Positions 57,362 to 61,452 of a stretch of 64,000 nt of DNA are shown piece by piece (the first letter of the stretch is position 1; the number at the start of each line of letters is the position of its first letter). Below the pieces are notes generated by a model. That model was not told the origin of the DNA, searched no databases, and saw nothing but the letters and a program-made list of their open reading frames with translations. This DNA comes from Candidatus Anstonellales archaeon. GTDB lineage: Archaea; Micrarchaeota; Micrarchaeia; Anstonellales; J096. Location of the stretch: positions 253,880 to 317,879 of the forward strand of contig JAWAFD010000001.1 in assembly GCA_038890745.1 (NCBI GenBank), in the 5' to 3' direction. The position numbers and the translations under genes are program-made.

Positions 57362-57598
57362 GCCGGGATGGCGGAATCCGGTAACGCGTACGCCTGGAGC
57401 AAATTTCCTTATGGAAAGCGTATGCCCGCAAGGGCTCGTGGGTTCAAAACCAAACCCAGGGGGAAGTTTCCCCCTAGGTTCCAGGTCTCCTCCTTAACCC
57501 CCTCATTTTTGCTCGTATAAGATAGGGGGGTGGAAGAGGCAGGGGGTCTTAGAAATGCTTAAGTACCCCCTGGTCTGGTGGATATCCCACTCCCGGCG
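57362..57598 (+). tRNA. tRNA-Ser(GGA) with two introns: about 17 nt in the anticodon loop (57400-57416) and 136 nt at 59/60 (57449-57584)
   Basis: GCCGGGA/TCCCGGC-G acceptor, TACGC/GCGTA anticodon stem, long variable arm GCCC-GCAA-GGGC, GTGGG-TTCAAA|…|T-CCCAC; BHB TTCA/TGGA with CCA/TGG outer helix; usual position before rps13. Confidence 0.9.
57505..57576 (-). repeat. Element A copy (antisense) inside the tRNA-Ser T-loop intron
   Basis: Reverse complement of the 73-bp unit at 60306-60524; about 65/73 identical by manual alignment. Confidence 0.93.
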
Positions 57599-59815: not shown

Positions 59816-59886
59816 TTTTTTCTCATTCTCTATACTAATGTTTGCAGGGGTAGCCAAGCGGTCAAAGGCGCAGGGTTTAGGAATAA

Positions 59887-60000
59887 GGGCACCTAACCCT
59901 ATACTAACCCCGTGCCCTTATCAACCCCTTCCGCCTTTTGGTGGAGGGTAGATGGGACGGCGGTTGGGCACCTAACCATTTACTAACCCCGTGCCCTTAT
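59887..60000 (+). repeat. 35-bp direct repeats (59887-59921, 59966-60000) flanking a 44-bp hairpin inside Leu intron 1
   Basis: GGGCACCTAACCCTATACTAACCCCGTGCCCTTAT vs GGGCACCTAACCATTTACTAACCCCGTGCCCTTAT (33/35). Confidence 0.93.
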
Positions 60001-60075
60001 GAAAATACCCTGTCCCTTAGTGGGTTCGTGGGTTCAAAAGCCCAGGGGGGCTTTAACTCTTTATCATCCCCCCCC

Positions 60076-60238
60076 TGATGCGGTGAAACAACCCAAAGGG
60101 CTTCGGTGCGACCCAACCCTCCTAAACTTTTGGGTCGCACTTGTTTCACCGCATCACTGATGCGATGAAACAACCCAAAGGGCTTCGGTGCGACCCAACC
60201 CTCCTAAACTTTTGGGTCGCACTTGTTTCGCCGCATCA
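60076..60238. mobile_element. Element B, two tandem 81-bp MITE/REP-like copies (60076-60156, 60158-60238) in Leu intron 2
   Basis: 16-bp terminal inverted repeats TGATGCGGTGAAACAA/TTGTTTCACCGCATCA and internal 11-bp stem GTGCGACCCAA/TTGGGTCGCAC; mobility is inferred. Confidence 0.7.
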
Positions 60239-60305
60239 CGCTTCCACCCCATATCTGTTTAGGATGGTTTGGAGGGTGGTTTGGCTGAAAATCCCATCCC
60301 CTGCA

Positions 60306-60562
60306 TTAGACCAGGGGGTACTTAAGCTTATTCTCAGACCCCCTGCCTCTTCCACCCCCTATCTTATCTAAGCAAAAGTTAGACCAGGGGGTACTTAAGC
60401 TTATTCTCAGACCCCCTGCCTCTTCCACCCCCTATCTTATCTAAGCAAAAATTAGACCAGGGGGTACTTAAGCTTATTCTCAGACCCCCTGCCTCTTCCA
60501 CCCCCTATCTTATCTAAGCAAAAATTAGACCAGGGGGTACTTTAACTTATTCTCAGACCCCC
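60306..60562 (+). repeat. Element A tandem array: 3 full 73-bp units plus a partial one, starting immediately after tRNA-Leu
   Basis: Units start at 60306, 60379, 60452 and 60525; each has hairpin CAGGGGGT…ACCCCCTG. Confidence 0.97.
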
Positions 60563-60643
60563 TGATGCGATGAAACAACCCAAAGGGCTTTGGTGCGACC
60601 CAACCCACCTAAACTTCTGGGTCGCACTTGTTTCGCCGCATCA
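60563..60643. mobile_element. Element B, third copy, inserted in the fourth element A unit
   Basis: Near-identical to 60158-60238; follows CAGACCCCC of element A. Confidence 0.7.
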
Positions 60644-60684
60644 CCTTACTCTACTATCCCCTATCTCCTCTAGGATAAGAAAAA

Positions 60685-61452
60685 TTATTTTTTACTCAAT
60701 CCATGCTTTTCGAAAACCTTTACAATTCTTTCATCTTTCGGTTTCCATCCAAACTCTGATGCCGCCGACAGAAGCCTTTCCACAATAAGTTTTTTTAATT
60801 CCTCATTTTTTATCTCACCAATTTTTATCAAAAGAAAATCCGGATCTAAAATGCTCAAAAATTTTGAAATCGTTTGCTTTTCTTTTTCATCTATTTTTGA
60901 TTCGCTGGTTATGAGTTTCAGCAGTCTGAATGCTGCTTCCGGATTTCCCATCCCGGTACTGAGAATATAATTCAATCCTGCAAAAACCAGGTACTTCTTG
61001 TCTTCCCATTTCTTTAGCATTATGTCCAGAAGCTCAACGGCCCCATCTGCAGATTCTACATCATTTACTGCTTTGTTGAGCGCTACAATGTTCACTATGT
61101 TTAAGTCCATTTTTTTTAGGGTGAGCTTTATCTCTTCACTCTCAAGCATTTTCCACACGATTTCTTTTTCATTTTCAGGAAGCTTTTCGTATGCGTATAT
61201 TAGGTTTAGGAAGAGTCTGACAATATCCTGTTCCGTGAGAGGGAATACGCCTTCTGTACTTGTCTTTTGTATTTCTTCAGTGAGTATCCTAATCCACAGG
61301 GTGAATTTTGATGCATTCTTCTTCATTTGGAAAATTCTGAGCAGCTTGATTTTAACATTTACATCTAGAGCGCGTACAAAATTCCTTATTGCCTTCTCGT
61401 TTATTTCTTCGCTACCATCATTACCGTTAATATTTATGAAAACCTCATCCAT
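60685..61452 (-). CDS. Hypothetical helical protein
   Basis: 255-aa ORF, no recognisable motif. Confidence 0.6.
   Translation of the reverse strand: MDEVFININGNDGSEEINEKAIRNFVRALDVNVKIKLLRIFQMKKNASKFTLWIRILTEEIQKTSTEGVFPLTEQDIVRLFLNLIYAYEKLPENEKEIVWKMLESEEIKLTLKKMDLNIVNIVALNKAVNDVESADGAVELLDIMLKKWEDKKYLVFAGLNYILSTGMGNPEAAFRLLKLITSESKIDEKEKQTISKFLSILDPDFLLIKIGEIKNEELKKLIVERLLSAASEFGWKPKDERIVKVFEKHGLSKK

Follow-up and report, generated by a model that had tools for sequence, protein, structure and literature searches.

The window analyzed in this study is a stretch of 64,000 nucleotides from the genome under study, hereafter G000 (C1:253880-317879; C1, C2 and so forth are its contigs). Genes resembling rps13, rps4, rps11 and rpoD, as read from the sequence and with rpoD-type domains detected by Pfam, precede a region in which interrupted tRNA genes are combined with two repeats: A, a host repeat with a G/C hairpin, and B, an 81-bp element bounded by terminal inverted repeats (TIRs), whose relatives are referred to as B', B2 to B6 and B8. 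The features of this region are as follows.

57362-57598, + strand: tRNA-Ser(GGA) gene with a 136-nt T-loop intron (57449-57584), which holds an empty A unit in reverse orientation
59844-60305, + strand: three-exon gene for tRNA-Leu(TAG) (exons 59844-59881, 60007-60038, 60292-60305), in which B copies 1 and 2 reside
59882-60006, + strand: 125-nt anticodon-loop (37/38) intron with two copies of another hairpin repeat (59887, 59966)
60039-60291, + strand: 253-nt T-loop (59/60) intron with a bulge-helix-bulge (BHB) junction, central helix TTCA/TGAA, inner helix GCC/GGC
60039-60075, + strand: A-like G6/C8 hairpin that opens the T-loop intron; left flank of B site 1
60076-60156, + strand: B copy 1, 81 bp, perfect 16-bp TIR
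60157, + strand: 1-nt spacer C of the B-C-B tandem, with an identical junction at two further loci
60158-60238, + strand: B copy 2
60239-60250, + strand: A-like right half that resumes after the B tandem; CG class, without direct repeat
60306-60524, + strand: three empty 73-bp A units (60308, 60381, 60454), directly 3' of the tRNA-Leu(TAG) gene
60525-60562, + strand: left half (hairpin) of a fourth A unit; left flank of B site 2
60563-60643, + strand: B copy 3, a mosaic haplotype with a 5' part like the intron copies and a 3' part like the CCTG class
60644-60661, + strand: CC direct repeat, then the TTAC-type right half of A

A sequence-only reading of this region had described three near-identical 81-bp copies with 16-bp TIRs and a three-way-junction fold, all of which agrees well with the present analysis: the copies differ pairwise at 2, 5 and 3 bases, the TIR of copy 1 is perfect, those of copies 2 and 3 having mismatches at positions 8 and 9, and B folds into a 16-bp stem, a CCC-AAA-GGG hairpin and an 11-bp stem (-30.9 kcal/mol, z -9.8), with no equally stable sequence among 200 shuffles. 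A alone folds no better than its shuffles (z -1.1). The 23-mer of the right end of B gave 3 matches against 0.00 expected, and Rfam gave three matches, each under its gathering score. Empty and filled sites coexist as that reading stated, three empty A units lying between the two B sites. It had placed B behind the C-arm of A at both locations, and both sites do follow the C-run of a G5/C5 hairpin, but what precedes B at site 1 is the A-like hairpin opening the tRNA T-loop intron rather than a standard A unit, and this site holds two B copies one C apart. The lack of a clear target-site duplication likewise holds for site 1 only: copy 3, which had been compared with the TGCC-type empty unit and not with the TTAC type, reads CC[B]CC against the TTAC-type empty A, present in 8 copies in G000. 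The tRNA setting was absent from that reading; copies 1 and 2 are located within the T-loop intron and copy 3 just downstream of tRNA-Leu(TAG).

Interrupted tRNA genes as hosts of B

The unspliced tRNA-Leu(TAG) gene is missed by ARAGORN, but after in silico removal of both introns an 84-nt tRNA-Leu(tag) is recognized by the same program. The intron at 60039-60291 has the features of an archaeal BHB intron, that is, a BHB at the junction and restoration of the tRNA on removal, and forcing the BHB costs 2.3 kcal/mol relative to the free fold, as compared with 2.3-3.9 kcal/mol in three sister introns. The orthologue in G002, which belongs to the genus of G000, carries no intron and no A array. 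A near-identical relative of the hairpin repeat in the 125-nt intron is present in another tRNA gene (C2:249039-249323), with related stretches in G001. The tRNA-Ser(GGA) gene (57362-57598) contains an additional 17-nt anticodon intron and is also missed by ARAGORN.

Scanning of G000 for T-loop introns yielded 33 candidates, of which 11 were dropped by eye since no tRNA 5' half was found upstream; removal of the intron gave an ARAGORN tRNA for all 22 that were kept, three of them mistyped owing to a second intron, and 2 more were found via intron starts, making 24 in all. These 24 introns form three sequence families of 13, 7 and 4 genes, and B resides in all four introns of the smallest family, including that at 60039-60291, and in one of the seven introns of the middle family. 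Genome-wide, 20 tRNA calls stand against 24 T-loop-interrupted genes, and the interrupted genes explain why standard tRNA finders miss many tRNA genes of G000. A splicing endonuclease is encoded in G000 (C4:104854, PF01974, E 1.6e-21, 383-aa frame), and the corresponding enzyme of ARMAN-2 cuts a 59/60 intron in vitro (PMC3239211). The B-bearing T-loop introns are predicted to be removed by tRNA processing and may be spliced in vivo.

Near-identical introns at one position of different tRNA genes have been reported for the Thermoproteales (Fujishima et al. 2010, as cited in bioRxiv 10.64898/2026.10.13.758758). The 24 T-loop introns of G000 in three families resemble these transposed introns as there summarized, but in G000 the introns are up to 407 nt long and contain nested TIR elements whose presence varies from strain to strain, and the same repeats fill the tRNA flanks. 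In the accessible text of this 2026 preprint, the arrival of archaeal tRNA introns is called open, no general route having been found in Asgard archaea.

Behind two tRNA-Ala genes (C1:179294-179794 and C2:313720-314089), A-type units alternate with repeated tRNA 3' ends, each consisting of the T-arm and acceptor; these arrays resemble integration scars without an integrase.

Genomic distribution, junctions and empty alleles of B

A total of 14 full copies of B were located at 11 sites in G000, all 11 directly behind the C-arm of an A-type hairpin (a pattern search of G000 lists 51 such hairpins, 11 of them filled). Five sites, with 7 copies, are within T-loop introns; ten sites lie 535 bp or less from a tRNA T-arm, and the 11th is 293 bp distant from the end of a contig. 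A solitary end of B (C1:142110) and a copy in decay (C3:239) were found outside the usual site. B-C-B tandems exist at three sites, and because the paired copies share an inner haplotype that is distinct from those of the other tandems, the doubling must have recurred, giving three separate tandem doublings. One copy (C2:163260) is inverted within unchanged flanks.

The right flanks of the B sites belong to three classes, CC+TGCC (4 sites), CC+TTAC (2 sites) and CGC (5 sites), for which matching empty A units of the TGCC, TTAC and TCA types are present in 14, 8 and 11 copies, respectively. A 2-bp direct repeat, CC, flanks B at the CC+TGCC and CC+TTAC sites (6 of 11), and none is found at the other five; the CGC class corresponds to the TCA-type empty unit with the last three bases of B supplied by the target. 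The TG, TA and TCA spacers of empty A were also considered as excision footprints, but this candidate was dropped, because the A hairpin is completed by TG or TGG, and G001, which is without B, has the TTAC type.

The inner sequences of B differ on average by 0.82 bases within a flank class and by 3.16 between classes (11 sites, permutation p=0.0004). Since the haplotypes of B track the right-flank class, the sites descend from few founders that were copied together with their flanks, possibly by gene conversion. Duplication of an A::B composite as a unit, one of two possibilities raised in the sequence-only reading, accounts for most of the pattern within G000, in agreement with both this linkage and the occupation of all four introns of one family. 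A variant, AA, is private to the three B copies of the window and, together with the mosaic nature of copy 3, points to local conversion. The other possibility, that B targets A specifically, is correct insofar as the family is mobile on its own and prefers the feet of hairpins, but A is not the sole target, as seen from B', a 107-bp relative and members in G028 at other places (see below). In its strict form, with an active B inserted independently at each of the 11 sites, this possibility is very improbable: the occupation of one position of A at 11 of 11 sites, the inverted copy, and the presence of a different family member at that position of A in related records, in both orientations, would all fit, but independent insertion is largely refuted by the linkage of haplotypes with flanks, and the family uses other targets.

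Empty forms were observed at two orthologous sites. A contig of run X4 (4356 bp, depth 11.2, like the single-copy contigs of X4) leads from unique DNA into the T-loop intron of tRNA-Leu(GAG), where 91 bases of G000 are replaced by GGCGCTTCCA in an alignment of 334 nt on the left, with 4 differences, and 72 nt on the right, the contigs being those of one study. As this intron is empty in X4, B is absent there in the X4 strain. The empty allele is of the GG/TGG type and misfits the reading in which TCA is shared between target and element. The second case is the 107-bp relative with a perfect TIR at C2:135073-135179 (L128:574-680), located in unique DNA between two genes, where GC-[element]-CTCG of G000 stands against GC-TT-CTCG in both sister species, one of the two replaced bases matching the TIR end. 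These alleles indicate that B is a mobile unit. The joint on the opposite strand across B in runs X1-X3 was rejected as evidence of a rearrangement; it is best read as a contig crossing a collapsed repeat into the inverted copy.

One tRNA gene is intron-free in a sister species and doubly interrupted in G000, its T-loop intron belongs to a copied family, and the nested B is present in one strain and absent in another; such layers can be dated and their junctions tested directly.

The 107-bp relative at C2:135073 is situated at the overlap of its two neighboring genes, with the upstream frame entering the element and stopping inside, and it may supply the start of the downstream gene. We take the flanking genes to be aminotransferase-like and, from a motif, tRNA C56 methyltransferase-like.

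The wider family, its fold and its target sites

A TIR-pattern scan was performed for 401 genomes of the class, together with a reversed control. Among the 44 genomes matched, paired and repeated hits are confined to four: G000 (27), G002 (17), G028 (15, or 58 at one mismatch), which belongs to another family than G000, and G058 (one element); the remaining genomes carry 1-2 hits each, as in the reversed control. The G058 element lies at a contig start and is possibly mis-binned, as its flanks are almost identical to those in G002. In G001, A is present (6 hits) and B ends are absent. A GTDB scan gave 12 loci, 9 family-like ones in Ca. Micrarchaeota records and 3 chance matches without the fold; a metagenome scan included one chance match without the fold among 9 loci, and of two viral scans one yielded 3 hits by chance and the other none.

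Full-length members of the family are 103-107 bp long, and B corresponds to such a member minus most of its first inner hairpin. An alignment of 16 members gave 64% column identity, 96.8% pairing cells against 32-43% in slid controls, and two-sided changes in 17 of 27 pairs, figures that describe the family more than they test it, since these members were chosen to span subfamilies, are related and were picked on TIR pairing. Almost every one of the changes exchanges one Watson-Crick pair for another, which is what inverted repeats of DNA should show. Positions 3, 12, 14 and 16 of the TIR are invariant, position 9 is non-Watson-Crick in 11 of the 16 members, and the outer two bases vary (TG, TA, AA, GA); the ends are TG...CA in B, B', B3, B4 and B6 and of other kinds in B2, B5 and B8.

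With 7 of the 14 copies in G000 lying in introns that must be transcribed, and with the fold conserved, B might be regarded as a nested intron or a structured domain of RNA, either active in an excised, circularized tRNA intron or spread via such an intron by reverse transcription. We consider this highly improbable, given that RVT_1 was found in none of five genomes, that both orientations occur, that the covarying pairs are Watson-Crick ones with hardly an exception and lack the G-U steps characteristic of RNA, that the G028 copies viewed by eye are not in tRNA-like contexts, and that no Rfam family reached its gathering score.

As to the target sites, B', the closest relative of B, is located at the foot of another hairpin, D, and B2 occupies the A site in both orientations (forward in L026, L033 and L066, reverse in L024, L028 and L069). 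Members in G028 are inserted in 6-bp-type repeats, in the hairpin of another repeat, in the linker joining another member's two hairpins, there just 3' of a hairpin, and in the TIR of another member. Two groups of junctions can be distinguished. Group 1 has a 2-bp direct repeat and includes the CC classes of B and five B3 sites in G028 (CC, CC, CC, TC, TG), the empty form being seen for one B3 site type only. Group 2 has no repeat and 1-3 target bases lost or shared; it includes the CG class of B, B2, B', B4 and B5, and the final 1-3 bases of one TIR come from the target in the CG class of B against TCA-type A, in B2 against TA-type A, in B', at two B4 sites and in B5. For B6 the empty form is a prediction, and counts of empty forms outside G000 stand for presence only, the fetched loci being overlapping.

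The junctions of group 1 would be accounted for if B were a MITE of the ordinary kind and owed its movement to a trans-acting DDE transposase of copy-out/paste-in mode (IS30, IS3 or IS21 type) that makes 2-bp duplications. B-C-B would then be an end-to-end junction made by the transposase, as described for this pathway with spacers of at least one base (PMC3299598, PMC7780238), and the other junctions would be products of later erosion, for instance a 5-nt slip at the TCAC repeat converting CC[B]CC-TCAC into the CG class. The TG...CA ends of five subfamilies, the repeats of three different dinucleotides at 6 of 11 sites in G000 and five sites in G028, and the three tandems, each of its own haplotype and all with a 1-nt spacer, are in agreement with this view. 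We nevertheless regard it as a rather unlikely alternative, because it is the outer two TIR bases that vary and inner positions that are invariant, because at least six site types are without duplication, and because enzymes of the rve, IS4/5, IS630, IS256, IS1595 and IS6 kinds were found neither in G000 nor in G002 and the DDE elements of G028 end differently.

Several single loci of the family may be added. Nested members in the linker and TIR of other members in G028 are found at L077:2041-2245 and in L084, L088, L092 and L101, and 66-nt chimeras with one inner hairpin in L091 and L093. At L073:1238-1340 of G028, B3 and its host repeat lie inside a coding sequence, presumably of a radical-SAM, TYW1-like protein, and the reading frame is kept open, in which respect this insertion resembles the Rickettsia palindromic elements. 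At L023:2041-3065, B2 is at the center of an inverted duplication (434 of 460 bases alike) including a membrane-protein gene, which may be either a real rearrangement or a chimeric contig.

Candidate mobilizing enzymes and proposed mode of spread

For identification of the mobilizing enzyme, we searched assemblies of 82-94% completeness. In G000 (93.8% complete) no match was obtained for 12 families, PF00589, PF01797, PF01548, PF01609, PF13358, PF00665, PF00078, PF00872, PF00239, PF12762, PF13610 and PF02371, and PF07282 gave only E 9e-4 for a 110-aa frame. Neither G000 nor G002 yielded a Y1 protein, and TnpB was the only match in G002 among the families searched. G028 has 14 Y1, 8 TnpB, 2 IS630 and 1 rve matches, but none of the fetched G028 transposase loci, including 8 of the 14 Y1 matches, is bounded by the family TIRs, and the rve/DDE elements carry other inverted repeats at their ends. 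An autonomous IS sharing the end of B, the search for which had been suggested in the sequence-only reading, was thus detected neither with the 12 Pfam families in G000 nor at the fetched G028 loci. When the ORFs of 13 transposase loci of related genomes were compared with G000 by tblastn, those among the matches listed were apparently neighboring host genes.

Three further possibilities were discarded. A 255-aa helical ORF next to copy 3 (60685-61452, - strand), with a homologous stretch at the same place in G001 and G002, was without a match in Pfam and without an ESM Atlas hit above 0.80, and was dropped on that account. A region of G000 (C3:29536-35531) includes the gene for Cas1 together with a CRISPR array of 61 repeats, each 37 nt long; as a shared mover, Cas1 was rejected since Cas1/CRISPR of G000 is found in neither G001 nor G002, and the CRISPR spacers of G000 matched none of the fetched loci and gave only 16-22-nt matches of chance length in the genome. 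The presumed likeness of the family to integron attC sites was abandoned as the AAC/GTT core holds in some subfamilies only.

The failure of 12 families to match in G000 is in line with a situation in which no dedicated enzyme operates at present: starting from a small number of old insertions, host recombination, replication slippage and template switching at strong hairpins would have brought about the spread, doubling, inversion and loss of copies, new sites being break-repair captures at hairpins with 1-3-nt microhomology. The heterogeneity of the junctions (+2 to -3), the mosaic A arrays, copy 3 of the window as a local recombinant and the chimeric G028 members with one inner hairpin all point in the same direction, and template switching is described to homogenize arms and to invert spacers (PMC8604942). 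Host processes by themselves are, however, an unlikely explanation for the occurrence of complete elements, neither TIR end damaged, at numerous unrelated places, unique DNA and a coding gene among them, for a length of 103-107 bp and an architecture kept across families at 64% column identity, and for exactly one spacer base in three of three tandems, even though the 4-nt repeat CCTG would favor two at C3.

We consider it highly probable that B belongs to a mobile family which uses hairpin-foot sites and has spread as a composite in tRNA introns and flanks. According to the mechanism that we propose, B would belong, as a shortened and non-coding form, to a family of three-helix inverted-repeat mini-elements, which would insert as a folded single strand of DNA at the 3' foot of other hairpin repeats, using an enzyme supplied in trans from elsewhere, most likely a transposase of the HUH/Y1 type as proposed for REPINs. 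B probably entered hairpin A one to three times in G000 and would thereafter have spread mainly by copying with A or with whole T-loop introns, through recombination between tRNA loci, accompanied by doubling, inversion and loss; the linkage of haplotypes with flanks and the occupation of all four introns of one family support this composite spread. As the introns and flanks would be removed in tRNA maturation, the load is likely neutral and B may be tolerated, which is consistent with the position of 10 of 11 sites near a T-arm, the presence of a splicing endonuclease and the 59/60 cleavage by the ARMAN-2 enzyme.

The complete model, including the single-strand chemistry and a HUH-type enzyme acting in trans, is possible, if somewhat short of probable, and is put forward tentatively. 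The conserved fold, the mismatch kept in the TIR, the targeting of hairpin feet, the nesting and the stem-completing junctions, from which an asymmetric intermediate is suggested, argue for it, as do the 14 Y1 matches of G028, where the family is most abundant. Against it are the absence of Y1 from G000 and G002 and of family ends around the fetched Y1 loci of G028; the 2-bp direct repeats at 6 of 11 sites in G000 and at five B3 sites in G028, which are not made by HUH insertion; and the use of both orientations at one target, which is not known of IS200/IS605 insertion, unless the interiors were inverted later. The empty allele in X4, GG/TGG and not TCA, does not fit the rule of shared bases, at C2:135073 only one of the two replaced bases matches the TIR end, and the TIR arms are not REP-like palindromes.

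B works like a MITE or a REPIN. As in MITEs, it is short, non-coding, bounded by TIRs, multicopy and missing from empty orthologous sites; MITEs have a target-site duplication of fixed length and a partner IS; B has 2 bp at 6 of 11 sites in G000 and none at 5, with +2 or -1 to -3 family-wide, and no IS with matching ends in 12 Pfam families of G000 or the fetched G028 transposase loci. The pneumococcal MITEs BOX, RUP and SPRITE are described to insert into one another (PMC10969869), and B, like these and other prokaryotic MITEs, clusters with and nests in other repeats; it is unlike them, as characterized there, in that the junction length is not fixed, the two-hairpin interior is kept across diverged families, and archaeal tRNA introns and flanks are occupied. 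For the REPINs of Pseudomonas fluorescens SBW25 and their RAYT (Y1/HUH), an asymmetric intermediate was argued (PMC3116915); according to that account B shares with them the folding into a long stem, the presence or absence at orthologous sites, tandem clusters with flanks, insertion into other copies and a target that seemingly completes the stem. It differs from REPINs in that its ends are plain TIRs and not two inverted REP palindromes, its two inner hairpins are different, some sites have 2-bp duplications, G000 and G002 gave no RAYT-like gene, and in G028 none of the 8 Y1 loci fetched out of 14 has copies at its flanks. With IS3, IS30, IS21 and IS256, as treated in PMC3299598 and PMC7780238, it has in common TG...CA ends (in B, B', B3, B4 and B6), an end-to-end junction with a short spacer (the three B-C-B tandems) and short direct repeats at some sites, but no transposase was found among the families searched, the terminal bases are not conserved family-wide, and target bases are lost at many sites.

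Insertion of repeats into one another (PMC10969869, PMC3116915) and copying of introns between tRNA genes are already known from the cited accounts; what is new is the extent of the family across the order, along with the empty alleles, the junction classes and the test of linkage. Our literature search, covering sources other than subscription papers and preprint supplements, revealed no account of TIR elements residing within tRNA introns of archaea, and in the accessible part of a 2026 survey of archaeal IS elements MITEs are mentioned once and tRNA not at all (PMC13343696). A MITE- or REPIN-like family persists in a 1-Mb genome without a detectable mobilizing enzyme. A bolder proposal, which we think quite unlikely, is that B represents an undescribed class of archaeal mobile element, a three-helix fold-back that would move as a single strand by an enzyme of no known family, choose any hairpin's 3' foot through pairing with 1-3 target bases, nest in its own kind and use T-loop introns as safe havens. 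If true, whole introns would carry B between tRNA genes and provide a live, strain-polymorphic, DNA-level route for the gain, growth and spread of archaeal tRNA introns without a recognizable transposase.

Elsewhere in G000, the segment C5:12936-22059 consists of alternating, oppositely oriented pairs of paralogous ORFs with shared N-termini.
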